64,000 nucleotides of DNA from Enterobacterales bacterium (GTDB lineage Bacteria > Pseudomonadota > Gammaproteobacteria > Enterobacterales > Permianibacteraceae). The position numbers and the translations under genes are program-made. Positions 15,566-50,657 of the stretch are shown here, in pieces (the stretch's first letter is position 1; the number at the start of each line of letters is the position of its first letter). Under the pieces are notes generated by a model that did no database searches, was not told the DNA's origin, and was given only the letters and a program-made list of their open reading frames with translations. Location of the stretch: assembly GCA_041914905.1 (NCBI GenBank), contig JAYSCL010000001.1:43917-107916 (forward strand), given 5' to 3'.

Positions 15566-15835
15566 ATAAATAAGAGAAAGGCCCTTTCGGGCCTTTTCAT
15601 TTAGACGTCTATTTCCATTAATTGTGAGATTTATTTCCACTTTCTGTGAGATCCCACAACACTTGTGGGATCTCATTAAACATGAAAACTCTGCATCGTT
15701 GATTTTAAAGGGGATTTTCATTTAATGTGAGATTTTCAGGTGTTTGTTTTTCTCACAGTACATGGAAATTTCTCCCTAAATCTCACAATTAGTGAAAAAG
15801 CAGCTTTCGTTTTCATATTCACACAACCACCGACC
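15566..15835. repeat. MITE-like repeat element, full copy, at the left boundary of the island.
   Basis: The first ~95 bp are near-identical to 47012-47110. It contains a terminator-like hairpin GGCCCTTTCGGGCCTTTT. A perfect palindrome ATGAGATCCCACAAGTGTTGTGGGATCTCA is visible on the minus strand. Inverted copies of AATTGTGAGAT(T) lie near both ends (15620 vs 15782) as candidate TIRs. Confidence 0.55.
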
Positions 15836-15842
15836 GCTAGTA

Positions 15843-18020
15843 TCAAACAATTTGTGCTTCTGTATTCGTATCGCCGAGTAGGTTTCGATACTGCAGTTGC
15901 ATATAATTCACGCGAATAATTCTCTCGACAGATTGTGGCAAATCGCGTTTCAGCTTGCGAAATTCGACGAAACCCATTTGAGCTATTTTTTCAATATGAG
16001 CATCCAGCTGCGCAAGCGGTTGGTGTGATAGTTCCACAGACAAACCGCGTTCAGCCGTCTTTAGAAGCACCGATCGCAAGGCTTCAAATGGCAGAAGAAG
16101 AGTCGTTGATTGAGACGATGATCCGTTTTGATTAGATTTCGGCTTTAAACGCTTCAGCTTCTGCAGCGACTGCGCAACAAGCCCGATAGCGGGTGTCGAA
16201 TCAAAATGCAAAACGTCCACTGCATTGGCGCGATCGGGATAGATCAAACTCAGCGGCTCAGCACTAAACTCGGCACCGTACCGACGAATTTTCGCAATCA
16301 AAACCGTGCCATTTACCAAGTCCCCCGCGGACAAGTTTTCGATGCGTTCAATCGCGTGTTCGTTATCTTCGGAGTAAGGAATGTCGACGTTTAATTGCTC
16401 GCCCTGTTCGTCATACAAAGGCCAAATCAGTTTTTGCCGAATCGAATCAAATTGCGCATCACCAAATCGTGCTGGACGCAGCGAGACCCAATCTTGCATT
16501 GGCTGCGGCTCTGCTAACACACTCTGACGCGACAATGCATATCGGCCTTTCAATTCACGCCAAGAATTGCAGAGATCTAATTTGTCGATAAACGCTTGCG
16601 CACTCACCACATCGCTTGTTATCGCCGTGGTGTTCTCACTGGTAGAAAGACGGCCATTGGCGCTGAGTTGTGCCGCCATCAGCTGAATTTGTTTACCACA
16701 CATTGCTGCTGGAGATGACGCACCACGCCATGGTCCTGGTGCAGCAAAACGTGCGCGCGGATTAAAGTTACGCTGACTTTCGGGGCGGGCGTCTGTACAG
16801 GCAAAAAAGGCTTTTTCCTTTGGAGACCAGAATATCATTGTTAAACCAACATAGCCCGCTGCCGAACGCCAAGGCATCGCCCCCAAACCAAGCAATTGCA
16901 AAGAATCAACAACATCATATTGATTGCGCGCCTGCCCCGTTAGTGACGTTGATACCATACCCTTTCGCTCAGCCGCCATCAGCGCTTCGACCAGAGCATA
17001 CGCACGAGTCATATCGTCAAATAGGCGAGACTCATCGGCGTCACGTGAGCGCGCAAGCAGTTGCTCTACATGGTCAGCCAGATGACGCAACAATCGTGCT
17101 AAGCGGTAGTAGTCAGCGGCCTGCGCCCATACAGCGAGTGTTGAAAAGCGCTCCCAAACCGCTGACGATAAATGCGATAAACCCAATCGAAGACAATCAA
17201 ACATAAGCTGACGCACAGACTCACATAATCGTTGTCGTGACTGGGTTTGCGAAACATTGTTATCGGCGAGCTCATGATCTTTGCCGAAGTTCAGGCTTTC
17301 GTTGTGTTTCTTACGAGTGGGTTCAGGTACGGCATGAACAACACCGTGTGCAGATTGATAAGCGAGAATGGCGGCGACTTGATACTTTTCTACGCTCGCT
17401 AAATCTGTTTCCGTTATCAACGCTTCGGGGCCACCACCCAAATAACGAAATCCGATCCGACGTCGTGGAAATCGGATCACAATGTAGCGATCAACTAGCA
17501 ATTGCAAGTCGTTTTCCAGCACCAAATCATGCACAAACTGCCAAGCCCATCGATACGCAGCGGTACCAGCATATTTAGTCAGTTCAGCACTGCTCGTTTG
17601 CATCAATTTGGCGTGCAACTCACCCGTTTCTTGATTGTTATAAGCCGAGTGATCGGTGGTGTCCGCTGTTTCGCTAGTAGCTCGTTTATCATCAATTGCT
17701 GCGCGATCGTTTTGAGCGATCGAGGATTCATTTTCTTGGTTGTTTTCACGCTGTAACCAGATCGCGGCTGCAAGAATGTGCTGACAAATTGATGACGACG
17801 GGCAGCTACATACGGCCTGCGCTGGTCCTCGTTTATCAAATTGAATGTCGAAGGATCCGAAAGAAACGATCAGCGCCTCATCGGATTCTTGACGAATTTC
17901 GGCGACAACTGTTTCAAGATCTTTATGGGCTCGGCGTAATAAACCTCGATTCGCCAGTGCGACAAAAGCTTCATCATCATAGCGGCTCAATTGGGCCAAC
18001 AATTGTGCACGCAAACTCAT
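15843..18020 (-). CDS. SWIM zinc-finger protein, fifth gene of the MoxR/VWA operon.
   Basis: A SWIM CxCx(n)CxH motif reads CSCPSSSICQHILAAAIW. Its start overlaps the VWA stop in an ATGA arrangement. Confidence 0.65.
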   Translation of the reverse strand: MSLRAQLLAQLSRYDDEAFVALANRGLLRRAHKDLETVVAEIRQESDEALIVSFGSFDIQFDKRGPAQAVCSCPSSSICQHILAAAIWLQRENNQENESSIAQNDRAAIDDKRATSETADTTDHSAYNNQETGELHAKLMQTSSAELTKYAGTAAYRWAWQFVHDLVLENDLQLLVDRYIVIRFPRRRIGFRYLGGGPEALITETDLASVEKYQVAAILAYQSAHGVVHAVPEPTRKKHNESLNFGKDHELADNNVSQTQSRQRLCESVRQLMFDCLRLGLSHLSSAVWERFSTLAVWAQAADYYRLARLLRHLADHVEQLLARSRDADESRLFDDMTRAYALVEALMAAERKGMVSTSLTGQARNQYDVVDSLQLLGLGAMPWRSAAGYVGLTMIFWSPKEKAFFACTDARPESQRNFNPRARFAAPGPWRGASSPAAMCGKQIQLMAAQLSANGRLSTSENTTAITSDVVSAQAFIDKLDLCNSWRELKGRYALSRQSVLAEPQPMQDWVSLRPARFGDAQFDSIRQKLIWPLYDEQGEQLNVDIPYSEDNEHAIERIENLSAGDLVNGTVLIAKIRRYGAEFSAEPLSLIYPDRANAVDVLHFDSTPAIGLVAQSLQKLKRLKPKSNQNGSSSQSTTLLLPFEALRSVLLKTAERGLSVELSHQPLAQLDAHIEKIAQMGFVEFRKLKRDLPQSVERIIRVNYMQLQYRNLLGDTNTEAQIV

Positions 18021-19135
18021 GACACAACCCTCACCAACCACTGTGCCAAACGCTGCGGTGTTAACGCCGCGATTTCCATACCGCTAGCGGCTAGCCGTTC
18101 GGCCATTTCACGATCATAAAATGGTTGTGATTGCGCATCGAGCGATGCCAGACCAAGCAGTTTGACGCGCGCTTCGGCTAACGCTTTGGTTGCTCGCAGT
18201 AATTCGGCGGGCGATCCACCTTCACAGAAGTCACTGACTAAAACCAAAACAGTTCGATGCGGATTTTCCACCAGCTGGCTGCAATAGCGCATGGCTTGTG
18301 CAATATCGGTTCCGCCACCCAATTGCACTTGCATTAAAATCTCAACCGGATCGTCGGCATAACCAGATAGATCAACAATATTGGTATCGAACACTACGAT
18401 CTTGACGCGGAAAGCCGGCAAAGCCGCAAGAATTCCTGCCATGATCGCGCTGTGTATGACGGAGTCCGCCATGCTGCCACTCTGATCGACACATAAAATA
18501 ATGTCCCAGGGTAGTCGCCGACTATTGCGTTCAAAAAAGCGCAACTGTTCGATCACCAGTTGTTGGCGTTCACGATCATAATTTTTCAAGTTACGACGCA
18601 CCGTACCGCTTGCATCGAAGTTCTGAAGCACCGCCATCGGCGAATGGCGAAACCGATTCAAACGCCCCGACAGTGTTTGCCGTATTTCGGCTTCGAGCTG
18701 ACGCCGGATTTCTGCAACAACTTGCCGAATGATACGTCGTATGGTTGGCAAAACATTGTCATTCAAGTGACCACGCAAAGTCAGCAATGAGCGCAACAAT
18801 TGTTGATTCGGTTCCAGTTTTTCCAGCGTTTGGGGATCGGTTAGCAGCTCGGTCAAACCATAACGATCGAGTGCATGTTTTTCGATGACTTCAATCGTTT
18901 CTTGCGGAAACAACTCGCGCACTTCGGCTAGCCAAGTCACCAATGTCAGCTGCGTTGCATCAAGCGAACCAGGACCCAGTTCTTTGCGTAATCCGCGTGC
19001 GCTGTATTCACGCCCGTAAAGGTATTCTAGTGCCGAGTCCATTCGCCCATGTGCACCGGCTAAAGTGTTTTGATTGAGCAGTTTCTGATTGGCATATTTG
19101 CCAAGAATAAGTCGCCATCTTTCAAGCTGGCTCAT
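18017..19135 (-). CDS. VWA-domain protein with a MIDAS motif.
   Basis: The MIDAS motif is LCVDQSGSMADSV, a DxSxS pattern. Its start overlaps the upstream gene's stop (ATGA). Confidence 0.7.
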   Translation of the reverse strand: MSQLERWRLILGKYANQKLLNQNTLAGAHGRMDSALEYLYGREYSARGLRKELGPGSLDATQLTLVTWLAEVRELFPQETIEVIEKHALDRYGLTELLTDPQTLEKLEPNQQLLRSLLTLRGHLNDNVLPTIRRIIRQVVAEIRRQLEAEIRQTLSGRLNRFRHSPMAVLQNFDASGTVRRNLKNYDRERQQLVIEQLRFFERNSRRLPWDIILCVDQSGSMADSVIHSAIMAGILAALPAFRVKIVVFDTNIVDLSGYADDPVEILMQVQLGGGTDIAQAMRYCSQLVENPHRTVLVLVSDFCEGGSPAELLRATKALAEARVKLLGLASLDAQSQPFYDREMAERLAASGMEIAALTPQRLAQWLVRVVS

Positions 19136-21570
19136 GACTCTCTCCAACTTGCTAAACCGTCTGCACTCAAAAGTTCACGCACTTGGCGCGACCATTCCAG
19201 GTTTTGTTGCAGCTCATGTTCGTCAATTTGATAATTAATTAACGGTCCTAAGTGGCTTTGCTTATGCAAAGCAGCAACCGCTGCTGCGATTCGATCAGTT
19301 TCTTTGGGTGTCAATTCGGCAAACGCGAGACGCAATTCAGGCAAGTTAGCGACAAAATCCGCGTCCGACCATTGCGCCAACAAGTCGTCCAATACGCTAA
19401 GCAGAATTGGTTGCTGCCAAGCCGCTTCACGAGCGGTGTGCAAAAGACCACGCAGAAAGGCAACGGCTTCGCTTGGCTGACTGAGGCCTCGTAAATGCCC
19501 ACTCAATGTCGCAGCAAGCGTGGATTCACCAAGGCGACCAGCACTGTAGAGAAGACCGGTAGCGGCACCACGTATCAACGCGACATCGTGTGCAGTTTGC
19601 AGACTCTCGATCATGCCCCAGTAAAGCGAACTGTCTAAATTTGATCCTGCTGTGCTCATCAACAACTCACGCAACTGCATAAGCGCCTGGATGGCGTTAT
19701 TCGGTTCGCATTGTTGACCGCGCATTTCTCGCCCGAGGTAGATAGCACGCTCATATGCCGCCTGTAGCAGAGTCGGTAGCTCCGGCACGTCACGCGCTTC
19801 GAGCGGTTCACGAGATTCCCACAACACTCCGAGACTGGCCACAGCGGCGGTAACGGATTCAAACGCTGCATCGGATCCGATCACTTGGCGCAATAAAGCC
19901 ACCACACGCGGCAAATGATCATGCAGGCCCAATACGCAGGCGTGATTCATCAGTGCCGCCGCGCGACGAGCATTAGCCAAATTATCTTCAGCTTGAAGCT
20001 GATCTAAGCGCGCAACAAATCGATTGGCGACGGCGAGCGGCACCGTAACTCCATACAACGACGCTTCAACCAATGCGGCTTCAGTCGCGGCTGAATGATG
20101 GTATTCCCATTGTTCCTGTAATCGATCTAGAGCAAGGCCGGTGACAAAATCCGGCCCGGCAATGCGGACGCCTAACGGCACTCCGAGTAAGAGCAAACCG
20201 TGAAAAAGACGACTTGTTTGTCGATGCGTTGCATTTCGGTAAATGTCAAGAACGGTTCGGTGCGATGCCGCATCATCGATCTTTAATCGCTGCCGCCGTG
20301 CGCGATAATTAAAGTCTTTGACTAAGGGAGGAAGATTCGCCGATGGCGGCACCTTTCCCATCGCTACGCCGGTGAGGATTTGTTGCGCAGCTGCGCGTAC
20401 AAAAACACCATCGCCGTCTGCATCACCTTTGACAAAACAACTGGTTATGGCATCCAGCACATCATCACGCACCGGTGCCACGCGCTGACGCAGTTGCGCT
20501 AGACGCAGGCATTGCTCATAAGCTGCGGTCAACGCAGGCATAGGTAGTGCTAATTTGTATTTTGTTCGCAGCTCTTCTGCCAGATCCATGAGCACTTGCA
20601 AAGCAACCGTGCGGCGAGTATCAACAAGATCTAGTGACACACGCTTCTCGTTTTTTTGCATTTGTTGCCAAAGCGTTTGATGCCAGGCCGGTGATGTCAT
20701 GCCGGCTGCGTAACCGTTTAAACGGTCGAGCCTTTCAAAGCTATAACGAATTAACGCGGACGCTGTATCCGTTACCTCACTGCGTTGTATCGAAGGACGT
20801 TTTGCTCCGGCGTCAATGCAAGTCTTAATTGCCGCTGCATGAAAACCACCTACGACGGCGATCACCGGCCCTTCATCCGCCTGGCGTTCTAACAGAGCTT
20901 GTTGAATATGCCAGGCCATTTCTGCTTCGCGTGTCAATGTTCCGTCGGCAATTAATTCTTCTTCACGGCTGTCAAATCGTGCCAACTCACAATAGGCGAC
21001 CATATGTTCAACATGTTCCGCCAAAGTTAGATTCGCGGCTGGCACCTCAAATAAATGCTCCCACAGTTCTTCGTGATCGCGGCAACCAATGCGAACGGCC
21101 AGCGCTTGCAAATACTGGCTGCGGCGATAATGTTGTTCATCAAGCAAAGACGCATTTTCTTCAGCATTTTCTTCGTTTTCAAATTGACATTGCTCGGCAA
21201 ATTCGAGGTCGATAAATCGAGCCGCAATTCCGCGTTCTTGGGCATAGCGCAGCGCAATCAGTTCTGGCGAGTAATCACAGAAGGGATAGTATGCAGCGCG
21301 ACGCTGTTCATTGCTGCGTTGTTCGGTTTTGGTCACCGCGTACGTATAAATCGCCAACGGCATTCGTGCTGCGGCATCGGTGAGTTGCGGAATCAAGCTG
21401 TTGAAAGATCGTGGACCTTCAACCAACACCGCCGACGGTGTACAACTCGCTAACAAACGACGCAGCTGCCATGCGCAAGCGGGGCTGTGATGACGAACGG
21501 GAAAAATAATCAGGTCCGGTCGAATCAATTTCGCCGCAAGCGCACGTAACTCGGCTGACGTCGGTAACAT
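19132..21570 (-). CDS. Large uncharacterised protein (DUF5682-like), third gene of the operon.
   Basis: It is 812 aa with no catalytic motif recognised. The five-gene syntenic context is conserved. The N-terminus reads IIFPVRHHSPACAWQ...VLVEGP. Confidence 0.45.
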   Translation of the reverse strand: MLPTSAELRALAAKLIRPDLIIFPVRHHSPACAWQLRRLLASCTPSAVLVEGPRSFNSLIPQLTDAAARMPLAIYTYAVTKTEQRSNEQRRAAYYPFCDYSPELIALRYAQERGIAARFIDLEFAEQCQFENEENAEENASLLDEQHYRRSQYLQALAVRIGCRDHEELWEHLFEVPAANLTLAEHVEHMVAYCELARFDSREEELIADGTLTREAEMAWHIQQALLERQADEGPVIAVVGGFHAAAIKTCIDAGAKRPSIQRSEVTDTASALIRYSFERLDRLNGYAAGMTSPAWHQTLWQQMQKNEKRVSLDLVDTRRTVALQVLMDLAEELRTKYKLALPMPALTAAYEQCLRLAQLRQRVAPVRDDVLDAITSCFVKGDADGDGVFVRAAAQQILTGVAMGKVPPSANLPPLVKDFNYRARRQRLKIDDAASHRTVLDIYRNATHRQTSRLFHGLLLLGVPLGVRIAGPDFVTGLALDRLQEQWEYHHSAATEAALVEASLYGVTVPLAVANRFVARLDQLQAEDNLANARRAAALMNHACVLGLHDHLPRVVALLRQVIGSDAAFESVTAAVASLGVLWESREPLEARDVPELPTLLQAAYERAIYLGREMRGQQCEPNNAIQALMQLRELLMSTAGSNLDSSLYWGMIESLQTAHDVALIRGAATGLLYSAGRLGESTLAATLSGHLRGLSQPSEAVAFLRGLLHTAREAAWQQPILLSVLDDLLAQWSDADFVANLPELRLAFAELTPKETDRIAAAVAALHKQSHLGPLINYQIDEHELQQNLEWSRQVRELLSADGLASWRES

Positions 21571-21587
21571 CGGCTAACTCAAATAAA

Positions 21588-22685
21588 TCAGCGGTCGAGT
21601 TCGCGACGGGCATCAAGCACCCGCTGCCATTGTTTTAAGCGCTGCGCACGTTGCTTGATCACAACATCAAAGTAGTGACGCAATTTTTTTCCGTCATCCG
21701 GATTATCTTTGAGCACGGTACCAATCAACTGACGCGCAATATGATCGCCCGCCACTTCACCGTTACCAAAATAGTGTGCATCCAAAGCGGCGGCATAACC
21801 CACCGCTACCGCTTCGGCAGAAGACATGATGGCCGTTGGTTTTTCCACCACTATGCCTTCAGCGGTTACGCCATTTCGCAAATCATTGAATGTCGTTACC
21901 AATAACTCGACGGCATCGACGCTGAAATTGACATCGATTTGCGCCTGTTGCAGCAGCACCGTTGTCTGATCGCGAACCAGTTGCATCTCCAGTTTGCGAT
22001 CATTGATTGGTCGTACCGTTTCAAAATTGAAGCGACGCTTTAGCGCGCTCGACATCTCATGCACGCCACGATCGCGAATATTAGCGGTCGCAAGCACATT
22101 AAAACCACGTGCGGCAAATACACTGGCGCCGTCATCGTTCAGCTCTGGCACATGCAGCACTTTGTCGGACAACAAGCCGATCAAACAATCTTGAATTTCC
22201 GGTTGTACGCGCGTTATCTCTTCGAAGCGACAAATTCGCCCTTGTTGCATCGCCTCATACAAAGGACCACGCACCAAAGCTTTTGGCGACGGCCCTTCCG
22301 CAATCAACAAGGCATAGTTCCAAGAGTATTTTATTTGGTCTTCCGTGGTACCAGCGGTGCCTTGTATCGTGCAATCAGAATGACCGGAAATCGCCGCCGT
22401 TAGCAGCTCTGACAACATGGACTTGGCAGTGCCCGGCTCGCCGACCAGCAATAAACCGCGATTGCTCATCAGTGTCACGATACAGCGATCTATCAGCGCA
22501 TCATCACCAAAAAATTTGCGGCGAATCGCGAGTTTGTCATCACCCAGAATAAACGTGCGTACAGCACGAGGAGACAAGCGCCATCCTAACGGGCGTTGCG
22601 ATCGGTCTTCAGCCAGTAAGCGCGCCAACTCTTCGGCATAAATGGTTTCGACAGGCGCCCGTAACATTTCACCAACGGCTTTCAT
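21588..22685 (-). CDS. MoxR-family AAA+ ATPase.
   Basis: The Walker A motif is LLVGEPGTAKSMLSE. It is 365 aa, and the overall layout is typical of MoxR/RavA-like ATPases. Confidence 0.75.
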   Translation of the reverse strand: MKAVGEMLRAPVETIYAEELARLLAEDRSQRPLGWRLSPRAVRTFILGDDKLAIRRKFFGDDALIDRCIVTLMSNRGLLLVGEPGTAKSMLSELLTAAISGHSDCTIQGTAGTTEDQIKYSWNYALLIAEGPSPKALVRGPLYEAMQQGRICRFEEITRVQPEIQDCLIGLLSDKVLHVPELNDDGASVFAARGFNVLATANIRDRGVHEMSSALKRRFNFETVRPINDRKLEMQLVRDQTTVLLQQAQIDVNFSVDAVELLVTTFNDLRNGVTAEGIVVEKPTAIMSSAEAVAVGYAAALDAHYFGNGEVAGDHIARQLIGTVLKDNPDDGKKLRHYFDVVIKQRAQRLKQWQRVLDARRELDR

Positions 22686-22691
22686 GATGAA

Positions 22692-35303: not shown

Positions 35304-35362
35304 TTAATTTTTTCCCGCAAGGTTTCGATAGGAGTTTGTGGTAATAGGGTGAGTTAATTGCA

Positions 35363-36271: not shown

Positions 36272-36276
36272 TTGAT

Positions 36277-37050: not shown

Positions 37051-37118
37051 ATTGCCACTAACAGGATTAGAGTACAAGCATAGTTTTACAGAGCAACTAA
37101 GTATTAAAGGGGAGCACC

Positions 37119-37778: not shown

Positions 37779-37794
37779 TTTGGGGTAACAGAAA

Positions 37795-38961
37795 ATGATT
37801 ATCGAATCGCTGCTTGATACCGACTTATACAAATTCACCATGATGCAAACGGTGTTGCATCAATTTCCATCGGCTCAGGTGGAGTACCGCTTTAAATGCC
37901 GCAATGCCGGTATCGATCTTAAAACGCTGGTTCCTGTGATTGAGCAAGAGCTTGATCACTTGTGTCAGCTGCGTTTTCAGCCGGAAGAGCTCGATTATTT
38001 AACGACATTGCGCTTTCTGAAATCTGATTTCATCGACTTTTTGCGTTTGTTCCAACTGAACCGTGACTACGTGCAGATCACGACCGATCCCGAATTCGAC
38101 ATCGTCATTCGTGGCCCATGGCTTCACACCATATTGTTTGAGATCCCGCTGCTGGCGATTGTTAACGAGAGCTACTTCCGTCATACACAGCCCAACGCGA
38201 ATTATGACGAAGGACGTCAGCGTCTTAAGCGAAAGATCGATTTGGTCAAAAACTTGAAGCCATATGACCGCTTCCAGTTTTCGGATTTTGGTACTCGCCG
38301 CCGCTTCAATCGGCGGTGGCACTACGAGGTGGTTGATCGCCTAATCGCTGAACTACCTCATCAGTTAACTGGCACCAGCAATGTGCATTTGGCGCGAACA
38401 AGAAAAATCAAACCGATCGGCACGATGGCACACGAGTTTTTGCAGGCCTGCCAGGCCTTGGGCGTGCGACTGGCCGATTCGCAAAAGTTTGCACTTGAAA
38501 CCTGGGTCAAAGAATACCGTGGCGATTTGGGTATTGCCCTGACCGATGTATGCGGTATTGATGCGTTTTTACGTGACTTCGATCTTTACTTCTGCAAATT
38601 GTTTGACGGTGTGCGTCACGATTCTGGCGATCCGTTTATCTGGGGCGAAAAGGTGTTGGCGCATTATCAAAGCATGCGTATTGATGCTCGCAGCAAAACC
38701 TTTGTGTTCAGCGACGGTTTGACGTTTCCACTCGCGCTTGAACTCTACAACCGATTTAAGGACCGCACCAACACCGCGTTTGGCATTGGCACCAACTTGA
38801 CCAATGACATGGGTTACGAAGCGCTCAATATCGTAATCAAAATGACCGAATGTAATGGCCAGCCGGTCGCAAAGCTAAGCGACTCACCCGGAAAAACGAT
38901 GTGTCGCGATGAAACTTATCTAGCGTACTTACGCAAAGTATTCCAAGTTGGCATCGAATAA
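37795..38961 (+). CDS. pncB: Nicotinate phosphoribosyltransferase.
   Basis: The N-terminus [21 protein letters not shown] and the ~390-aa length match PncB. Confidence 0.85.
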
Positions 38962-38975
38962 TAGGGAAGAAGAAC

Positions 38976-40673: not shown

Positions 40674-41019
40674 TGAAACTGTCACGCTGTTTCGTCCCAC
40701 CGGACCGAATGAGCTCAAATTGGTTGAACAAAGTGGTTTTCGGCGTTGGCCACCACGGTTACCGGAGCAGCCGTTTTTTTATCCGGTAACCAATGAGCAA
40801 TACGCCGCCGAAATTGCACGCAACTGGAACGTTAAAGACAGCGGTTCCGGTTACGTCACGCGCTTTCAAGTGAAGAAAGCGTTTATGGATCGCTATCAAG
40901 TTCAAACCGTTGGCGCCCGCCACCACACCGAGTGGTGGGTACCGGCAGAGGAGTTGGAAGCATTAAATGACAATATTGTTGGACTCATCGAAGTGATCGG
41001 TGAGTTCAAACGAGAATAA
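40666..41019 (+). CDS. Hypothetical 117-aa protein, translationally coupled between nadE and kptA.
   Basis: It overlaps the nadE stop by 8 nt. Its own 3' end overlaps the first kptA start at 41000. No motif was recognised. Confidence 0.35.
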   Translation: MVNETVTLFRPTGPNELKLVEQSGFRRWPPRLPEQPFFYPVTNEQYAAEIARNWNVKDSGSGYVTRFQVKKAFMDRYQVQTVGARHHTEWWVPAEELEALNDNIVGLIEVIGEFKRE

Positions 41020-41032
41020 CAACGGAAGAAGT

Positions 41033-41566
41033 ATGAAAGACGAGAAAGTCAGTAAATTTTTAAGTTATGTGCTGCGACACAAACCCGATGCCATTGGCTT
41101 GCAATTGGATGCCAATGGCTGGGTCGATGTTGAAGAGCTGCTGGATAATATGGCTTACGCCGATATGGCGATATCGATTGAGACACTGCAACGCATCGTG
41201 CGCGAAAGCGATAAACAGCGATTTGCCTTTAGTGAAGATGGCGCACGAATTCGCGCCAATCAGGGGCACTCCATAAATGTTGATTTGGCATTGCCCGATC
41301 GAGAACCGCCCGCCGAGCTCTTTCATGGCACGGCAACACGCTTTTTGGAATCTATCAGGAAGGACGGTTTGATTCCGCGCTCACGCCATGCCGTTCATCT
41401 GTCAGCCAATTACGAAACTGCACTCAATGTTGGTCAGCGCCATGGCAGCCCGGTTGTACTGCGTATCGCTTCGGGAAAAATGTTTTCAGCGGGATTTCGT
41501 TTTCAGTGTTCAGAAAACGGTGTCTGGCTTACCGAAAAAGTGCCCGCCGAATTTATTTCGGTCTGA
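41033..41566 (+). CDS. kptA: RNA 2'-phosphotransferase KptA/Tpt1. An alternative start lies at 41000.
   Basis: The sequence is close to E. coli KptA throughout (SKFLSYVLRHKPDAIGLQLDANGW...RANQGHSI...LFHGT...RHAVHLSA...GQRHGSPVVL...ENGVWLT). It has a GGAAGAAG Shine-Dalgarno before the ATG at 41033. Confidence 0.85.
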   Translation: MKDEKVSKFLSYVLRHKPDAIGLQLDANGWVDVEELLDNMAYADMAISIETLQRIVRESDKQRFAFSEDGARIRANQGHSINVDLALPDREPPAELFHGTATRFLESIRKDGLIPRSRHAVHLSANYETALNVGQRHGSPVVLRIASGKMFSAGFRFQCSENGVWLTEKVPAEFISV

Positions 41567-41591
41567 CTGATTATTTTTAAGGAAAATAGTA

Positions 41592-42203
41592 TTGAATCTT
41601 GTAACTCAACTCTATGTTGAGCAATTAAAACACTGGCCTGAGTCCGGCCAACATATCATGGCTCAGTTTGATGAACACTCCATTATTGTTTATCAGGCTT
41701 ACCGACCAGCCATTGCGGAATACGCCGTACAGCATCAACAATTCGGTGGTGAGTTTAGTTTTGCTCGCATGAGTTGGATAAAACCAAACTTTTTGTGGAT
41801 GATGTTTCGCTCCGGCTGGGCCAACAAACCCGGGCAAGAACATATTCTTGCCATTCGCTTACGCCGGCAGTTTTTTGATGAATTATTGTCGAACGCCGTG
41901 GCGTCAACATTTGATACTAAAAAATTTGAGAACCGGGAAAGCTGGAAGGCTTCAGTCGAAAATTCCGAAGTAAGACTGCAATGGGATCCGGATCATGATC
42001 CCTTTGGTGCACCAATTACCAGACGCGCAATTCAACTCGGGCTGCGTGGTGAAATGCTAAAACGATTTGCTACAACTGCGCTTTTAAGCGTCGAAGACAT
42101 AACCGATTTTGTGCGAATGCAATCTCGACAGTTAGAAAGTGGCATCCAAAATTTGGTAGTTCCTATTGAAACCAGCTACAGCGGACCCGTTATTGGCCTG
42201 TGA
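41592..42203 (+). CDS. Conserved hypothetical protein, last gene of the NAD-salvage/kptA operon. No function was recognised.
   Basis: A 203-aa ORF with coding-like composition lies 25 nt after kptA. The start is uncertain (a TTG, or the internal Met at 41658). Confidence 0.4.
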   Translation: MNLVTQLYVEQLKHWPESGQHIMAQFDEHSIIVYQAYRPAIAEYAVQHQQFGGEFSFARMSWIKPNFLWMMFRSGWANKPGQEHILAIRLRRQFFDELLSNAVASTFDTKKFENRESWKASVENSEVRLQWDPDHDPFGAPITRRAIQLGLRGEMLKRFATTALLSVEDITDFVRMQSRQLESGIQNLVVPIETSYSGPVIGL

Positions 42204-42237: not shown

Positions 42238-42429
42238 TCAGTTTACGGGGTGTGGACAGTAGTACTTGAGAGTGACCTGCATGCTCGTTACACGGTTGGT
42301 GCCAAAGAAGACGTAGTCGTTTGCCGCCTTTGAATCCTCACGCTCAAACGCAATGTTCTTCGACAAATCGGTTAGCGACTTCTTTATCTCCAATGGCGCA
42401 TGCGACCCTTCGATGTATAAGGTGGTCAT
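42238..42429 (-). CDS. Small hypothetical protein coupled to the DUF3010-like gene.
   Basis: The 63-aa ORF starts with an ATGA overlap onto the stop of the upstream gene at 42426. Confidence 0.3.
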   Translation of the reverse strand: MTTLYIEGSHAPLEIKKSLTDLSKNIAFEREDSKAANDYVFFGTNRVTSMQVTLKYYCPHPVN

Positions 42430-42854
42430 TTTTTAGCCGCTTGCTTTGCCAAAGCTGCGCAGGCTGTACGGAATGCCTCCTCTTGGTATTTGTTCAGCGA
42501 ATCAGGAGAAGGGAAATCATGCTTGCGAGCCTGTGCGGCAATAGTCTGAGCAGATAGCAGTTCGACTTGTATTTCTTTGAGTAGCTGAAAGACCCCCTCA
42601 ATCTTGAAGGTTGTGGGGCCTCCTGCGTATTCTCCGTTCTTCGCACGCATCTTGATGACCACGTGGGAGACCTTGTTGTCTCGAAGGAACCCAGCAACAA
42701 GATCTGCAAATGACTGAACGTTGGCGGCTTTATCGTCGTCTGCCAGTGTAATTCGCTTGGTCGCGGTGGAGATGTAGTTGAACTGTCCCTCCGCCAACTC
42801 GGTGACGGCGAAGATAGCTTCGCTGCCCTTGATCTCAACGCCGCAAACTCGCAT
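42426..42854 (-). CDS. DUF3010-like hypothetical protein.
   Basis: A 142-aa ORF. The family assignment is from memory of an N-terminal pattern resembling MRVCGVEIKGSEA.... Confidence 0.35.
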   Translation of the reverse strand: MRVCGVEIKGSEAIFAVTELAEGQFNYISTATKRITLADDDKAANVQSFADLVAGFLRDNKVSHVVIKMRAKNGEYAGGPTTFKIEGVFQLLKEIQVELLSAQTIAAQARKHDFPSPDSLNKYQEEAFRTACAALAKQAAKK

Positions 42855-42905
42855 AGAAGGCTCCTAGAATGTCTAACGTTATGCCGTCGTGCGCGCAAAA
42901 TGCGA

Positions 42906-44852
42906 TCACTGGTTGGGCCAATCCGCTGGAACAAGTGCAGGTGGCTTGGTCCACGGCTCCTCAACCAGCGCATCCTGAAACCACTGATCGCGCAGGTTCG
43001 CATGCTCAGTGACAATTAGTTGGAAACCTGGAACATCGTTCTGGGTGAACTTTAGCAACAAGTCGAACAGCCGGCGCACAGCATCTAGGTCGGCGTCGGC
43101 TTCCGTCTTCTGCACCGAACCATCAGCATCCCTATAAACCTGCTCAGAGGGGAAATAGACCTGGGTTGGTTGGTCGATCAACAGGAAGCGCGGAATCGGA
43201 CGGTTGTTCTGTGCCGCGAATAGATGCAGGGCGAGCAATGCTGACAGGTGGTAGGCCAGATGGTTCTCGCCGCCACCGGTCCTGCCCATCGACACAGGAC
43301 GCTCGGGTCGATCGAAGATTATTGTCAATTGCGGCAGGTTGAGCCGCGCAGGGTAAGGACCGAATTCGGCGTTGAACTTTTGGATGTATCGCGACACCTG
43401 TGCGGAGATGTTGTTGAGGATCGATGTCAGGCGTTCGCTGCTGTCGTCAGCACCGATCTGCTCCTCAAGCTGCTTCACTTTGTTGCTGAGACGGCGATTC
43501 TCTGCTTCCAGTTTGGCAAGATCCTCATTCGGGAGGAGCGTTTCTAGGAACAGGCTGATACGGCCGACCACGCGCGCGGCCGCGTTGTTGCGGGTTCCCA
43601 TCTGGGCGATGAATTCATTGGCCGAGATCGCCGCGGATAGCTCCGCTTCCTTCTGCTTGATATCGCCTGCGATCCCATCCGCTTTGCCTGTTAATTCGGC
43701 AAGGTAGGCTTCGAGCTTGGGGCGCTGGCCGCTGGCAATGCGCAACTCATTTTCGAGCGATTCCAATTCATTGAGCAAGACGATGGCGACTGGGGATTCC
43801 AGCGCCAAGTTCTGCTCGCTGAACGGCCATTGCCATTCGCCGCTGTCTGGATTCTTCGGCAGTGCCTTGATTGAGGCCAGCCGGTCTATCTGTTCGGCGG
43901 CCTCATTTTCGTAGCCGCCAGCCCGCTTGGCGAACTGTCGTGCCGCGTCAATCCGGGCCTGCGTATCTCGGCGATCCTGACGCAGTTGGGCCAGCTCATC
44001 TTCCAGAAACGAGACCCGGCTGCCGTCGTCGTCTGGCACGGTTTCGGGATTCCACGACAGCGCCAACCTCAAGGCATCAATGATCCCGTCGGTATTCGAG
44101 TTCTCGTCGGTGTTGCGGATGACCCCGACCGTTTTGGCTTCTGAGTAGAGGCCGATAGCCTGTACATGCGACGTGTCGACGGCGTCGCGCGCCTGCTCCA
44201 GCTTCTTGTTGCTAATCCTCAGATCGCGCTGCGCTAAGCGCAGCTTGGATTCCAACTCGTAACGATCGTGAGAGGAGACGCCAAGCAAGATTGGCAACGT
44301 GTCGCGGATCGCTTGCGGTTGAAACTGCTCGTTCTGGCGATAGAAAAGTTGATCCTTGTTGGCGACAAGCCCCTGCTTCTGGAACAGGTAATAGAACGTG
44401 TGCTTGACGTTCGCGTCGTAGCTATCTCGACTGTGCTCAAGAGCGACTTCGGTGCGGTTCTCGGGAATTCCAAGCAAGCGCGACAGCAGTTCGACAATGC
44501 TGTCATCGTCAGTGTTGACCGCCAGATCCTTGAACTCGGGCACCTGCAATTGGGCCCCCCTTCGCAACATTGCCGTGCTGCAACTGGCGCCACCCCCGGG
44601 CGGGGTCGGCTTGGCAACCAGCACCTGTTCTTTCTCGAACTGGTAGATCACGGCGAACCAAGACACTTTGTCACGGATGATGCCTTCCGGAACGTTGAAC
44701 GACGAGCGTCCCATGCAGTATTCGATAATCTCGGAGAGCGCAGACTTGCCGGTGGAGGAGCGGCCGGTGATAACGTTGAGTCCGTCTACCTTGAACCGGA
44801 GGTCACGGCGCTGGCTGCCATGGCTGTAGATGTGGATAGATCTGATCTTCAT
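42906..44852 (-). CDS. SMC-like ABC ATPase of a three-component ABC (ABC-3C) conflict system (DUF3732-like).
   Basis: The N-terminal Walker A reads NVITGRSSTGKSALSE. A long coiled-coil middle region follows. The C-terminal Walker B/D-loop reads FLLIDQPTQVYFP. Its start overlaps the stop of the upstream gene. Confidence 0.6.
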   Translation of the reverse strand: MKIRSIHIYSHGSQRRDLRFKVDGLNVITGRSSTGKSALSEIIEYCMGRSSFNVPEGIIRDKVSWFAVIYQFEKEQVLVAKPTPPGGGASCSTAMLRRGAQLQVPEFKDLAVNTDDDSIVELLSRLLGIPENRTEVALEHSRDSYDANVKHTFYYLFQKQGLVANKDQLFYRQNEQFQPQAIRDTLPILLGVSSHDRYELESKLRLAQRDLRISNKKLEQARDAVDTSHVQAIGLYSEAKTVGVIRNTDENSNTDGIIDALRLALSWNPETVPDDDGSRVSFLEDELAQLRQDRRDTQARIDAARQFAKRAGGYENEAAEQIDRLASIKALPKNPDSGEWQWPFSEQNLALESPVAIVLLNELESLENELRIASGQRPKLEAYLAELTGKADGIAGDIKQKEAELSAAISANEFIAQMGTRNNAAARVVGRISLFLETLLPNEDLAKLEAENRRLSNKVKQLEEQIGADDSSERLTSILNNISAQVSRYIQKFNAEFGPYPARLNLPQLTIIFDRPERPVSMGRTGGGENHLAYHLSALLALHLFAAQNNRPIPRFLLIDQPTQVYFPSEQVYRDADGSVQKTEADADLDAVRRLFDLLLKFTQNDVPGFQLIVTEHANLRDQWFQDALVEEPWTKPPALVPADWPNQ

Positions 44853-45337
44853 GGACGAATCCCGAAAGTCGTATAAACGGTCGCCCGATCGGCGATGCGT
44901 GCAAATTCCTTTCCGACGATCCGCGCCACTTTCTGGCAGGCGACGGTTTCGGCGGTTCCATCGATGCTCTTGCGGACCTTTCTTGATACGGTCTGGATGC
45001 GGCCATCGTCCGCGACGGTGATGCAGCCTCTTTCCATCAGTAAACCGAACCCCTCGAAGGCATACGGCAGTATCTGCGTAACCCGGTCGGCGAAGCCCAC
45101 CATGATTTGCTGGTTCTTCTCTACGGTCTTGAGCAGGTAGCTGCGTGGACTGCTGGCGATCACCTCGCGCGAATCCTTATGCAGGCACAGGGGCAGCACA
45201 AGCAGCGACAGCGAGAATGGCATGCCGCGAGCGTCTTCTTCCTCGTAGCCGTGCAGGGCGCGGAACAAGACCAAGCCACAAAAGGCAGGATTGAACAGGT
45301 TCCGAATTTCAAAGGGGCGCTGATCCCATCGCTTCAC
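44849..45337 (-). CDS. ABC-3C middle-component protein.
   Basis: A 162-aa ORF sits between the effector and the ABC ATPase with ATGA-type overlaps at both ends. The size is typical of ABC-3C middle components. Confidence 0.5.
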   Translation of the reverse strand: MKRWDQRPFEIRNLFNPAFCGLVLFRALHGYEEEDARGMPFSLSLLVLPLCLHKDSREVIASSPRSYLLKTVEKNQQIMVGFADRVTQILPYAFEGFGLLMERGCITVADDGRIQTVSRKVRKSIDGTAETVACQKVARIVGKEFARIADRATVYTTFGIRP

Positions 45338-46569
45338 GAGGCCTCCCCCAGGATCTTGCCAAGACGGTCGAGGAATCTGGGATGCCAGTAGACCTTGGGT
45401 TTGGGGGTGGAATCCGCCAGGATGTGGAAGCTGCCGCGAAGGACATAGGGTTCCGTCACCCGTGCACGAATGCGTAGAGATTCGATCTTTCCAGTCTCAA
45501 ATTCCGCCCAGTTATAGAGAGTCGCGCCGGCTTCGCGCAGTGCTTTTTCCGCGCTATCGTCCTTCAGCTTCTCGAAAGCGAAATCCTTGTAGCGGCCCCA
45601 CTCATCGGTGAGGCGGTCTTCGTACTCCTCGACCTCTCCCAACATAAGCAGGTTCTCGCGTGCCCAGGCCGATCGTTGTTCGAACGCTCGGTAATAATCC
45701 AGAATCGCGCTCCTGATCCGATTGGAGGAAATACCGATCTCACGCAGTTGCGCCACGAACAGGCGCGGATCTGTATCAGTGTCAATCTCATCGGCGGGCA
45801 GCTTTCCGCGGAAGGTGATAGGCAGGTTGTCCGCCTTGTATTCCTCGGCGAAGTTTGAGAGCTTGTCCGACACTTCGTAGCCGAAGATCCCTTCCGGCCT
45901 AGCTCCGGTCAAATGCTTGATCACGGCATCAGTCCACCAGCCCTCCAGCCGCTCGAAGACAAACTCGCGGTGCTCGCGCCGGATGGGCCGCATGTGCTTG
46001 TCTCTGATGAGCGCCGGGATGTCGTCTATGCGTGGGCTGCCATCGAGGATCAGGATGCGTCCGAGAAAGTCCTGCTTTTCGGGGTCACTTAGTTCGTTGA
46101 ACGCTGCGGCTGTCGGCGCGATGAGTTTCGATGTCGATTTGGCAAGCGCCGCATCGGCCAGTTCGGAGAGCGCTGCCGCATCACGCGAGGCGACAGGCTT
46201 ATCGGGGAGAAGAAGGGCAAGAAATGAGCCGGTGGACACCGTGCCAGTAGTGAACAGGAAGAACCGCATGTTCGATGCAGCGCGGCCATCCCGTTTGTAA
46301 CGCGCCAGCCAGATATTTACGGACTTCCAGAAATCGGTCGACAGGTCGGTCAAACTATCGCCAATCGCCTTGTGTTTGAGTGAGGCTAGGGACTTGCCAC
46401 CGCTACCGTCGATAAAGTCGAGGTCGTCGTCCTTTTCTAGGAAGATGGCAGTGTCTTCAGGCAATTGAAGCAGTTGCAGCAGCGCGAGACGTGCCTGGTA
46501 GATATATCCCAGCCCCTGCTCGCCGGCAGAGTATTGGTCAGTGGCTTTCCTTGTCATTGGTATAATCAC
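45334..46569 (-). CDS. ABC-3C effector component with an N-terminal Cap4-like (DUF4297) restriction-endonuclease-fold nuclease domain.
   Basis: The N-terminus GLGYIYQARLALLQLLQL...FLEKDDDLDFIDGSG...KHK shows a G-x-x-YQ start and a D...EK...K pattern. It is the first gene of the three-gene operon. Confidence 0.45.
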   Translation of the reverse strand: MIIPMTRKATDQYSAGEQGLGYIYQARLALLQLLQLPEDTAIFLEKDDDLDFIDGSGGKSLASLKHKAIGDSLTDLSTDFWKSVNIWLARYKRDGRAASNMRFFLFTTGTVSTGSFLALLLPDKPVASRDAAALSELADAALAKSTSKLIAPTAAAFNELSDPEKQDFLGRILILDGSPRIDDIPALIRDKHMRPIRREHREFVFERLEGWWTDAVIKHLTGARPEGIFGYEVSDKLSNFAEEYKADNLPITFRGKLPADEIDTDTDPRLFVAQLREIGISSNRIRSAILDYYRAFEQRSAWARENLLMLGEVEEYEDRLTDEWGRYKDFAFEKLKDDSAEKALREAGATLYNWAEFETGKIESLRIRARVTEPYVLRGSFHILADSTPKPKVYWHPRFLDRLGKILGEAS

Positions 46570-47011
46570 CCCTTAGCATCGACACGCCATCGACGACGAT
46601 ACATTCTCTCCGTCATAACGTGAGTTCGGCCCCCGAGTAGGGGCGTTTTCTCACGCCTTTTAGGTGGATATATCCGGTTTCGATGATTGTAAGTGCCCGA
46701 TTTAATTCGACCTCACCAGAAATAGGGTCGATTAGGGCTCAAAAGGATAGGCGCCTTGGACGGCAAACTTAAGCTACTCCGGCTTGGTCGACAAGAGCCG
46801 CATTTCCGTTCTCACAGATATCAACTCGACCGTCTGCTTCTGGCCGATAGGCGACATTCAAGCCTTAATATATATGCTGTAGGCATTTTATGTGTTGCGA
46901 TAAAATGGTAGTTCGCGAAGGCTGTTTGCTACAACATCAATCATCCATAAATTTACAAAAGCATCGGAAAAGCCGAAAAATCGCCAAGAATAGATTTTTG
47001 TTGTTAAATAA

Positions 47012-47110
47012 TTGATAAATATGGAAAAGGCCCTTTCGGGCCTTTTCATTTAGACGTCTATTTCCATTAATTGTGAGATTTATTTCCACATTCTGTGAGA
47101 TCCCACACTT
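47012..47110. repeat. Truncated copy of the MITE-like element, abutting the gyrB stop codon at the right boundary of the island.
   Basis: It is about 95 bp and near-identical (1 substitution, 1 small indel) to 15566-15666. It includes the same GGCCCTTTCGGGCCTTTT hairpin and the TTCCATTAATTGTGAGATTTATTTCCAC block. Confidence 0.55.

Positions 47111-47113: not shown

Positions 47114-50657
<3,544 letters not shown>

Follow-up and report, generated by a model that had tools for sequence, protein, structure and literature searches.

How did a block of accessory genes come to lie directly behind gyrB, and what are the near-identical repeats at its two edges? These questions are raised by a window of 64,000 nucleotides (the whole stretch of DNA that was analysed), for which the first-pass annotation proposed an island bracketed by direct repeats that may be the trace of its acquisition. 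The observation itself was confirmed, the interpretation in part. The block at 15664-47107 is here explained, with a modest preference over other readings, as a 31.4-kb transposon-type element with ends of the kind recognized by TnsB/MuA-superfamily DDE transposases, which would behave most like a Tn7-like element and would have been inserted downstream of gyrB.

Repeat copies and element ends

The repeat pair was refined to 15563-15658 and 47012-47107, i.e. 96 nt in direct orientation with 92 of 96 positions identical and an exact core of 64 nt (15577-15640 = 47026-47089); these are the only two copies within the 64-kb window, the chance expectation being 0. As reported earlier, each copy has the AATTGTGAGATTTATTTCCAC block together with a GGCCC-TTTC-GGGCC hairpin, and both hairpins score as intrinsic terminators on the minus strand, which is the gyrB-sense strand. 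Each copy consists, in this order, of a TGTGGGATCTCA terminus, phased ~22-bp sites with the motif ATCTCAC-N6-TGGAAAT, and an inward-facing terminator. Exact TGTGGGATCTCA termini were found exactly three times in the window, at 15658 (minus), 15664 (plus) and 47107 (minus). The ends and junctions, with the block designated Y and the adjoining element or remnant X, are as follows:

15563-15658, minus strand: right-type end of X (left repeat copy), terminus at 15658, oriented as the right-type end of Y
15577-15596, minus strand: terminator hairpin in the right-type end of X, the same as in Y, downstream of the SWIM operon and the left end of Y
15659-15663, unstranded: 5-bp spacer ACACT from the X terminus to the left terminus of Y, forming with these termini the palindrome GAGATCCCACA-ACACT-TGTGGGATCTC
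15664-47107, unstranded: element Y, 31,444 bp, with perfect 12-bp terminal inverted repeats 5′-TGTGGGATCTCA ... TGAGATCCCACA-3′
15664-15801, plus strand: left-type end of Y, with the terminus, three spaced sites oriented like it (15670-15689, 15750-15769, 15780-15799) and a fourth, inverted one at 15714-15733
47012-47107, minus strand: right-type end of Y (right repeat copy), terminus at 47107, with packed, 22-bp-phased sites at 47082-47101 and 47060-47079
47024-47047, minus strand: terminator hairpin in the right-type end of Y, a 10-bp stem followed by a T-rich tail, now the gyrB terminator
47105-47110, unstranded: ACACTT, a direct repeat of 15659-15664, shifted by 3 bp on the gyrB side and considered a candidate for a target-site duplication
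47114-49555, minus strand: gyrB (813 aa), stop codon at 47114-47116, its 3′ end being the presumed recognition target of the insertion

The 20-nt motif, counted with 0-3 mismatches, is present in eight copies, all at most ~140 bp from the termini, and the remainder of the window holds just two further matches, both weak. Terminal and subterminal sites are built from this one motif. In the right-type end they are packed in 22-bp phase and accompanied by a third, degenerate unit (47045-47066) and a terminator that faces inward; in the left-type end they are spaced out across ~136 bp. The two ends of Y align as inverted repeats, with the inner two left sites pairing with the two right sites. This layout fits the published definition of Tn7-family ends, which comprises TGT/ACA termini, right sites packed at 22 bp, spaced left sites and an att gene that lies beyond the right end (PMC11406308; PMC8649781), and thus supports the transposon reading.

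The right copy, which does abut the gyrB stop codon (at a distance of 6 nt), had been taken as truncated and is a complete end, while the extra ~140 bp by which the left copy seemed to extend into a MITE-like unit are a separate, oppositely oriented end. The copies are not paired att sites of the island, since the block is bounded by the inverted termini at 15664 and 47107 and the left copy lies outside it, belonging to the neighbouring element or remnant X, which is arranged head-to-tail with Y. As Y adjoins an end of the same type from what would be an older element, the direct repeat can be understood as two copies of a right-type end. The homology between the two is confined to the ~96-nt end and the inner sequence differs, as expected of two elements with different cargo. 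Against the transposon reading, no partner left-type end of X was found in the 15.5 kb at 1-15562.

The repeats might instead represent a dispersed MITE- or REP-like family with a preference for terminator-proximal intergenic sites, i.e. a ~240-bp foldback unit at 15563-15800 and a half copy at 47012-47107 separated by 31 kb of ordinary, partly ancestral chromosome. The left unit contains nested inverted repeats that would fold back (I1 with 22-nt arms, 91%; I2 with 26-nt arms), the bulk of the cargo has a host-like composition and gives the impression of long residence, and the window is free of transposase genes. This explanation is nevertheless regarded as unlikely: the half copy stops exactly at the palindrome centre and 6 nt from the gyrB stop codon, which is expected for a transposon terminus and would have to be put down to chance in a truncated MITE, and the homology between the copies runs ~50 nt past the outer inverted repeat, over the terminator and on one side only, making the unit asymmetric. 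Moreover, only two loci occur in 64 kb and none in the collections searched, and the 5-bp spacing and the recurrent ACACT(T) are left unaccounted for.

Junctions, gyrB flank and mobility genes

Read in the direction of gyrB, the junction on the gyrB side is ...TGA CATA AGTGT GGGATC and the distal one ...CCCACA AGTGT TGTGGGATC. The gap between the X and Y termini is exactly 5 bp, the same as the Tn7-family stagger. At the gyrB-side junction ACACT(T) recurs with a 3-bp offset inside a TGT-TGT repeat, and a 5-bp duplication would hold only if a slippage of 3 bp is assumed. Two points count against it: with strict TGT/ACA termini the flanking 5-mers are unlike (ACACT versus CTTAT), and some 5-bp repeat within ±4 bp arises in ~6% of random trials.

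The right flank gyrB-recF-dnaN-dnaA-rpmH-rnpA-yidC-mnmE, of which gyrB-recF-dnaN-dnaA was previously described as core, is syntenic in five relatives, and in all five synteny is lost directly after the gyrB stop codon, in agreement with a discrete ~31.4-kb block exactly at the gyrB 3′ end. The closest GyrB relative is only 82% identical, the nucleotide identity of gyrB to its nearest relative is 78%, and the 3′ coding sequence of the gene is conserved among relatives. Two results were counted against the transposon reading. A similar GGCCC/GGGCC terminator is present at gyrB of one relative, so that the hairpin could in principle be native, and the composition check that had been proposed along with the island gave a weak signal only, the block being barely or weakly distinct from its flanks.

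Integrase, recombinase or transposase genes were detected in the 64-kb window neither by Pfam nor by NCBIfam, small ORFs adjacent to the junctions included, so that the earlier statement on the missing integrase stands. Genes or remnants of tnsA/B/C/tniQ or MuA-like type were likewise found neither in the element nor in the 64 kb; the defining genes of the transposon family are therefore absent, which counts against the favoured reading, as do the 0 exact matches to the ends in species-representative genomes. Degenerate end patterns gave no matches in genomes and metagenomes beyond chance or unrelated ones, no ends were found in plasmids, and the end sequences of Y matched none of the known elements searched. 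Incidental ~22-bp phased site arrays ending in ...ACA-3′ in other genomes are unrelated and located at element boundaries beside phage tail genes; they have the end layout of Mu-like prophages, and hence the phased multi-site architecture is a mark of DDE-transposon ends. Due to the combination of transposon-type ends with a missing transposase, Y is probably a decayed, now fixed island or a non-autonomous element with a helper encoded elsewhere.

An island of a site-specific (tyrosine or serine) recombinase in the gyrB 3′ end, with the 96-nt repeats as attL/attR, the palindrome as core site, the motifs as arm-type sites and a lost integrase gene, is an improbable explanation. A conserved gene does have, at its 3′ end, a block bracketed by direct repeats, the left junction is a perfect 12-bp inverted repeat around a short spacer and hence resembles a recombinase core, and the homology ends at the palindrome centre. 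However, core-type and arm-type sites are distinct in lambda-like integrases, whereas the use of one motif for terminal and subterminal sites is a transposase-type pattern, and the spacer of 5 bp is below the overlap of typically 6-8 bp of tyrosine recombinases. Additionally, the chromosome-side copy would need pre-existing arm sites, integrase and excisionase genes or their remnants were not found, and the TG...CA termini and asymmetric site spacing suit DDE transposons. That the locus has no mobile-element history, the motif arrays being operators of a host DNA-binding protein duplicated with the terminator by local segmental duplication, is very improbable: the lack of mobility genes and the position of the arrays at operon ends beside terminators would fit, but the motif is absent elsewhere in the 64 kb, promoters included, operators are unexpected downstream of stop codons, and neither the exact inverted termini at a distance of 31.4 kb nor the location 6 nt from the gyrB stop codon is explained.

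Cargo and proposed course of insertion

The cargo of Y comprises the following features:

15843-26420, minus strand: MoxR operon of five genes (DUF4132, MoxR AAA+, DUF5682, VWA, SWIM)
26638-29995, both strands: SPFH1 and a 305-aa weakly NAD-kinase-like protein (plus), HEAT-repeat protein (minus)
30114-34739, both strands: RtcB module, with an SPFH2(Band-7)-RtcB operon (minus) and the divergent RtcR gene at 33147-34739 (plus)
32809-32879, minus strand: tRNA-like b7a-tRNA within the RtcB module
34845-42203, both strands: NAD/ADP-ribose cluster, with Macro, ARH and NrtR (minus) and PncA, PncB, NadE, a 117-aa orphan, KptA and DUF4291 (plus)
42426-42854, minus strand: DUF3010 gene
42878-46598, minus strand: ABC-3C cassette, with CTD7 (45334-46569), MC3 (44849-45337) and ABC ATPase/DUF3732 (42906-44852)
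46599-47011, unstranded: non-coding stretch of 413 bp just inside the right-type end, the usual place of tnsA/B/C in Tn7-like elements, in which no gene remnants were found

The stop codon of the MoxR-SWIM operon is located ~45 nt from the innermost left-end site. The gene list given in the first-pass annotation was correct and the cargo is of the RNA-repair, NAD and defence type; its description as one coherent acquisition did not hold, since the cargo is a mosaic of mixed ages. The ABC-3C cassette has a GC3 of ~0.70 and a nucleotide identity of 92% to Gallaecimonas and 89% to the cargo of a Thalassospira ICE; judged by these values, it is a recent horizontally acquired insert and demonstrably mobile DNA. 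Such identities to distant taxa and ICEs, compared with 78% for gyrB, point to mobility of a part of the cargo. No relative of the MoxR-VWA-SWIM operon exceeds 58% protein identity, and for the larger part of the cargo, the MoxR operon and the NAD salvage genes, close relatives are missing and codon usage is near that of the host, which was counted against the transposon reading.

For a transposon-type element at gyrB, the following course of events is proposed. A TnsD/TniQ-like target selector would recognize gyrB by its conserved 3′ coding end, with the transposase joining the element just beyond the stop codon at a 5-bp stagger. Y would have been inserted in this way in a fixed orientation a few bp past the stop codon, where an older element or remnant at this site had already left an end of the same type; this second insertion at the same 5 bp would have pushed the older end outward and left the termini 5 bp apart. 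The terminator carried by the element end may replace that of gyrB itself and insulate the cargo, which was probably built up stepwise, with the ABC-3C cassette as the last addition. Adjacent insertions at one att site giving multiple left and right ends have been documented (PMC8649781).

Comparison with known systems

With regard to the cargo only, and not to the boundaries of the island, Y resembles systems described by Burroughs and Aravind: RtcR, a Band-7 gene, a tRNA-like RNA and RtcB as in the RtcB / Band-7 / b7a-tRNA RNA-repair systems, and KptA, Macro, ARH and NAD salvage genes as in the KptA-Macro NAD/ADP-ribose systems. No report of RtcB or KptA-Macro systems inside a transposon-ended unit was found in the literature examined.

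SGI1 is an integrase-borne island at the 3′ end of the oriC-proximal trmE/mnmE. Islands of this type share with the present locus an accessory island that abuts a conserved gene near dnaA/oriC and is flanked by direct repeats, but they have a tyrosine integrase and short att repeats, whereas Y has no integrase and transposon-type inverted ends. Mu-like prophages and MuA/TniA-type DDE elements (Tn402/Tn5053, IS21) have, like Y, phased multi-site ends terminating in ...CA-3′; unlike them, Y contains no phage or tni genes, and homing to one particular housekeeping gene at its 3′ end is not known for these families.

In prototypic Tn7 at attTn7 (glmS) and its genomic islands, as in Y, the right end is nearest to the conserved gene, and 22-bp phased right sites, spaced left sites and a 5-bp stagger are common to both. 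The first six bases of the Y terminus, TGTGGG, are presumably those of the Tn7 terminus. In Tn7, too, successive insertions are known to give extra ends. As a rule, a resident end makes a further insertion from the same family beside it less likely, owing to the target immunity of Tn7. Y has a binding-site sequence and a target gene of its own and is without transposition genes.

Tn7-like elements with TniQ/TnsD targeting downstream of parE, a paralogue of gyrB, have been documented (PMC11406308); they include elements of Acinetobacter and other Gammaproteobacteria and some I-F3 CASTs. Y differs from them in its presumed target gyrB, the missing tnsA/B/C/tniQ and a 5-bp duplication that is not clean. 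In common with Y, these parE-homing elements keep a fixed orientation directly behind the stop codon of an essential gene for a type-II topoisomerase B subunit and have TGT/ACA termini with packed and spaced ~20-22-bp subterminal arrays. They also share with Y a large defence-rich cargo and, at the att site, ends that are orphaned or arranged in tandem.

Terminal architecture of the block adjoining gyrB

The first-pass annotation had described 15566-47110 as an accessory island bracketed by direct repeats of about 90 bp, and the near-identical direct repeats are real. Over 96 nt, the copies at 15563-15658 and 47012-47107 are identical at 92 of 96 positions, with an exact 64-nt core (15577-15640 = 47026-47089), and they are the sole two copies in the window, where none are expected by chance. 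A 20-nt motif, ATCTCAC-N6-TGGAAAT, was found in eight copies with 0-3 mismatches, none of them farther than about 140 bp from a junction, while only two weak matches were present elsewhere in the window. Read inward from its gyrB-proximal tip, the 96-nt copy consists of TGTGGG, site 1, site 2 in 22-bp phase, a degenerate third 22-bp unit and a terminator. Exact TGTGGGATCTCA termini occur three times in the window, at 15658 (-), 15664 (+) and 47107 (-), and the latter two form a perfect 12-bp terminal inverted repeat with TGT/ACA ends. These inverted termini bound 15664-47107 (31,444 bp) as a unit with asymmetric multi-site ends, here called Y; X denotes a second element or remnant known from one end.

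15563-15658, minus strand: right-type end of X, terminus at 15658
15596-15577, gyrB-sense strand: terminator-like hairpin in the X end
15664-15801: left-type end of Y
15670-89, 15750-69 and 15780-99: co-oriented sites of the left-type end, spread over about 136 bp
15714-33: inverted site of the left-type end
47012-47107: right-type end of Y
47047-47024, gyrB-sense strand: terminator-like hairpin in the right-type end of Y
47114-49555, minus strand: gyrB, with the TGA stop codon at 47114-47116

The right-type end comprises two strong sites and one degenerate unit in 22-bp phase, and the two inner sites of the left-type end of Y align with both sites of the 96-nt right-type end. Y thus carries arrays of at least three repeats at both ends, packed on the right, spaced on the left and mutually inverted, with the packed sites adjoining gyrB and the spaced sites at the far side. 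By their likeness to published end arrays, the motif sites appear to be of the transposase-binding type.

The left 96-nt copy lies outside Y and is the right-type end of X, in the same orientation as that of Y, so that the repeats do not appear to bracket the block as had been proposed. From the terminus of X to the left terminus of Y there are exactly 5 bp (ACACT), a gap that fits the expected stagger. The X end, these 5 bp and the left end of Y together form the palindrome that had been read as part of a MITE-like unit. Homology between the right-type ends of X and Y is limited to the end itself, the inner sequences being different, and a partner left-type end for X was not found in window positions 1-15562. 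As proposed in the first-pass annotation, Y could plausibly be deleted by RecA-dependent recombination between the two 96-nt copies, which share the exact 64-nt core.

The right repeat copy has its last base at 47107, at a distance of 6 nt from the gyrB stop codon, and no part of the 96-nt repeat reaches into the coding sequence of gyrB. For that gene, the likely start is M39 of its longest ORF, which immediately follows the recF stop. At this one locus, both right-type ends in the window face gyrB. On the gyrB-sense strand, both repeat copies contain the terminator-like hairpin noted earlier, of the intrinsic type (AAAAGGCCC-GAAA-GGGCCTTTT, followed by a T-rich tail). Each right-type end would bring an inward-facing terminator with it, and that of Y would now terminate gyrB. 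An Rfam scan of the right junction gave only a sub-threshold sRNA match, which covers the terminator.

With the strict TGT/ACA termini of Y, the flanking 5-mers differ (ACACT versus CTTAT on the plus strand). The sequence ACACTT is shared by 15659-15664 and 47105-47110. Read in the direction of gyrB, the junction on the gyrB side is ...TGA CATA AGTGT GGGATC... and the distal one is ...CCCACA AGTGT TGTGGGATC..., from which it follows that the gyrB-side junction equals the expected AGTGT|TGTGGG less one TGT of a TGT-TGT tandem; the same 3-nt gap was placed by MAFFT in the alignment of the two repeat copies. ACACT(T) is thus found at both junctions only if 3 bp (TGT) were lost on the gyrB side, and in random trials a 5-bp repeat within +/-4 bp arose by chance in about 6% of cases. 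The junctions would fit a history, assumed here, in which the same 5 bp, 4 nt beyond the stop codon, received two insertions in succession and a slippage deletion came afterwards.

Recombinase genes and further copies of the ends

As previously stated for integrases, no integrase, transposase or other recombinase was identified in the 64-kb window, either by Pfam, by NCBIfam for the Pfam-negative proteins or among the small junction ORFs. Domains of rve, Mu-transposase, TnsA, TnsC or TniQ were absent from all window ORFs, and Pfam and NCBIfam yielded no tyrosine or serine recombinase in or beside the block. The 413 bp inside the right-type end are non-coding and contain no gene remnants.

Further copies of the ends were searched for in several collections. 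An exact 25-mer of the repeat had 0 matches in species-representative genomes; the terminal-site pattern had 23 matches in JGI metagenomes, all of them single-site as chance predicts; and neither the junction unit nor the 413 bp of non-coding sequence inside the right-type end had a blastn match among plasmids. A degenerate two-site pattern gave 31 matches in species-representative genomes (comparison loci L003-L033), all of which were rejected as unrelated, many being the ends of another family with opposite polarity. The arrays of that family have the form [TTTCTCA-N7-TG(A/C)AAA]x2 followed by ...(A/T)ACA-3' (e.g. TTTCTCA-N7-TGAAAA). Examples are:

L009, 5413-5460: unrelated end array
L015, about 5099-5150: unrelated end array
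L023, about 6265-6310: unrelated end array

This end family is widespread, with hosts among Clostridia, Desulfobacterota, a spirochaete symbiont and an Archaeoglobus MAG. The three arrays examined are all located at element boundaries beside phage tail genes, a setting from which Mu-like transposable prophages are the probable owners of these ends. Used as a calibration, the arrays show that the phased architecture is diagnostic of MuA/TnsB-class DDE ends generally, without being particular to Tn7.

The organism has also been assembled independently: Logan contig SRR26835165_25101 (L066, 31,445 bp) is 100% identical to the window over the 12.4 kb compared and breaks exactly at the 64-nt exact cores (window 15611-47055). 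A circular form was considered for this contig and rejected, as it is exactly the k=31 unitig that runs from one of these cores to the other.

Cargo and chromosomal setting

The gene list of the block was correct as first annotated and reads as follows from 15.8 kb onwards:

DUF4132 / MoxR / DUF5682 / VWA / SWIM; SPFH1 and a 305-aa orphan; HEAT-repeat protein
SPFH2-RtcB, tRNA-like RNA, RtcR; Macro, ARH, NrtR, PncA, PncB, NadE
117-aa orphan, KptA, DUF4291; DUF3010; ABC-3C trio

Its description as coherent holds in theme, with RNA repair and NAD/ADP-ribose metabolism plausibly combined, but not in history, where the block is composite. The ABC-3C trio consists of three consecutive genes with PF12532/AAA_23, PF20131 and PF20283, i.e. 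the ATPase, MC3 and CTD7 effector by which the class is recognised, and is also present in ICEs. This 3.7-kb cassette (42878-46598) shares 92.2% nucleotide identity with the chromosome of Gallaecimonas pentaromativorans (L034) and 89% with the traG-trbB cargo slot of Tn4371-type ICEs of Thalassospira (L035-L040), and for its proteins, CTD7 among them, identity across Alpha-, Beta- and Gammaproteobacteria is 87-91%. Set against gyrB, which has only 78% nucleotide identity to its nearest relative, the cassette is, by sequence identity, a recent piece. The limits of homology fall within about 30 nt of where its outermost genes end, and no flanking mobility gene is present in the window. The SWIM protein, with a best identity of 58% (Permianibacter) and about 45% to others, is by the same measure an old piece, as is its operon. 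The cargo is therefore, as judged from these identities, a mosaic of mixed ages that was built up stepwise.

The five-gene DUF4132/MoxR AAA+/DUF5682/VWA/SWIM operon (15843-26420, minus strand) occurs as a self-contained module in two unrelated neighbourhoods (L041, L042), and in the Permianibacter copy an IS21-type insertion disrupts the gene for DUF4132. A role of the operon as mobilisation machinery was considered and rejected, since it stands alone elsewhere in two neighbourhoods without an obvious mobility link. It appears to resemble the yehI-yehLMPQ cluster of E. coli. PADLOC gave no matches for the MoxR operon, SPFH, HEAT or DUF3010 proteins. The gene for the 305-aa orphan (27657-28574, plus strand) overlaps the SPFH1 stop by 4 nt; its product has no Pfam match and only a weak likeness to NAD kinase (NCBIfam E about 5e-6, far below the family cut-off), and it may be a further NAD-linked component of the cargo. 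The tRNA-like RNA (32809-32879, minus strand) is located in the leader of the Band-7(SPFH2)-rtcB operon, divergent from rtcR, and scores 36.2 bits with the Rfam tRNA model; it is rejected by ARAGORN and shows a 6-nt anticodon loop, acceptor-stem mismatches and no CCA. Upstream of it, around 33005-32990 (minus strand), there is a sigma54-like box, TGGCAC-N5-TTGG.

The source organism is a sparsely sampled gammaproteobacterium, the best GyrB matches of which, besides itself, are 82% and 80%. The earlier distinction between a core right flank and an accessory block is supported on the flank side: the order mnmE-yidC-rnpA-rpmH-dnaA-dnaN-recF-gyrB is kept in five relatives, and synteny stops at the gyrB stop. 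Behind gyrB the relatives carry, each differently, CMD/TetR/P450 genes, a DNA methylase, a sensor kinase with a lanthipeptide cluster, or pyruvate carboxylase genes. Neither motif arrays nor a Y-like element were present after gyrB in these five genomes, which are all too distant to serve as empty-site references and have unrelated gyrB downstream regions. In one comparison locus (L002, 12656-15008), a DNA methylase and an unknown gene follow gyrB directly; in another (L067, 12665-22424) the position is taken by a lanthipeptide-like cluster, whereas core genes occupy it in a close sister genome (L069). In this part of the Gammaproteobacteria, the flank 3' of gyrB may be a place of repeated insertion or rearrangement.

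The compositional check proposed earlier was weakly informative. GC3 was 0.42-0.57 in the cargo between 15.8 and 42.2 kb, 0.48-0.65 in the flanks, 0.68-0.71 in ABC-3C and 0.65 in gyrB; ABC-3C alone stands out, and GC, GC3 and codon usage revealed no clean island boundary.

The proximity of the block to oriC is based on gene order and the AT-rich dnaA-rpmH spacer. Perfect DnaA boxes (TTATCCACA) were seen at 15535-15543 (minus strand), 20 nt outside the X end, and at 53659-53667 (minus strand), in that spacer. Across the window, DnaA boxes are no more frequent than in shuffled sequence, and no significance is therefore given to these two.

Origin of Y and comparison with known systems

On balance we favour the explanation that Y is a Tn7-type element (TnsB/MuA superfamily) which homed to the 3' end of gyrB beside an older end of the same family. 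X would have been at this position first, Y would then have been inserted next to it, and Y would by now have decayed or would depend on a helper encoded elsewhere. The main weaknesses of this explanation are the lack of transposition genes, ends that were found nowhere else searched, the imperfect duplication and an X without a left end. What was observed directly is the layout and position of the ends, the lack of recombinase genes and the differing ages of the cargo, while the family of the transposase, the recognition of gyrB, the sequence of insertions and any mobility, past or present, are deduced. A fixed, decayed island would be a more ordinary outcome than a mobile element. The first-pass interpretation is in this way supported in part, its central observation having been confirmed.

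A more far-reaching version is unlikely: Y would be a large, cargo-only and non-autonomous member of an undescribed Tn7-type family that has the gyrB 3' end as its home, sister to the parE-targeting TnsD/TniQ, and that could be mobilised in trans by a helper in the same genome. If this were true, Y would be the counterpart of a giant MITE in the Tn7 world, and its modules for RNA repair, NAD salvage and defence would sit where gene dosage on the chromosome is highest. We likewise consider it improbable that the repeats belong to a dispersed MITE/REP family and that the 31 kb are ordinary chromosome, which would leave unexplained both the 5-bp spacing of X and Y and the precise end point of the 'half copy', at the very centre of the palindrome and 6 nt from the stop codon; moreover, only two loci exist in the 64-kb window and none in the collections searched. 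An integrase-type island with att repeats and a since-lost integrase would account for the 96-nt direct repeats, but the chances of this are slim in view of the motif shared by terminal and subterminal sites, the TG...CA termini with a 5-bp spacer, the left copy outside the inverted-repeat unit, a repeat that does not extend into gyrB coding sequence, and the missing integrase gene by Pfam/NCBIfam. Non-mobile operator arrays are very improbable.

If the favoured explanation is correct, gyrB joins glmS, parE, comM, tRNA genes and others as a safe-harbour target of Tn7-class elements, and the paralogue pair parE/gyrB would be a natural example of a shift in target-selector specificity, useful for the study of TnsD/TniQ evolution and for the engineering of site-specific insertion tools. 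The locus shows Tn7-class end architecture at a target not reported before, in an element that has 31 kb of cargo but lacks transposition genes. Here the architecture of the ends was enough to set the limits of a large island, with neither integrase nor transposase, to the base pair, at a locus that defeats island-finding pipelines based on recombinase genes or on composition. Beside the replication origin, the locus appears to record a stepwise build-up, with an ICE-borne ABC-3C cassette added to an older RNA-repair/NAD block. Both the gyrB/parE parallel and the base-pair delimitation are directly testable.

Known Tn7-family ends have a short TGT/ACA terminus with closely spaced 22-bp TnsB sites on the right and spaced sites on the left; beyond the right end lies the att gene, and insertion duplicates 5 bp of the target (PMC11406308). 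Benler et al. delimited 6,549 elements by their arrays of inverted subterminal sites (PMC8649781), and adjacent insertions are known to yield multiple left and right ends (PMC8649781; A. baumannii study PMC11014353). Tn7-like elements home downstream of parE, the paralogue of gyrB, where TniQ/TnsD reads the 3' end of the coding sequence (PMC11406308 among other sources); in the literature on Tn7-like elements, no report of gyrB as att site was found. The family carries TnsB, TnsC, TniQ/TnsD and usually TnsA next to one end, whereas Y has none of these, and because these defining tns genes were looked for and are absent, Y is not classed as a member of the Tn7-like family. Tn7-like behaviour is suggested by apparent homing beside a housekeeping gene, in fixed orientation and twice, and judged by its ends Y looks built to work like a Tn7-like element.
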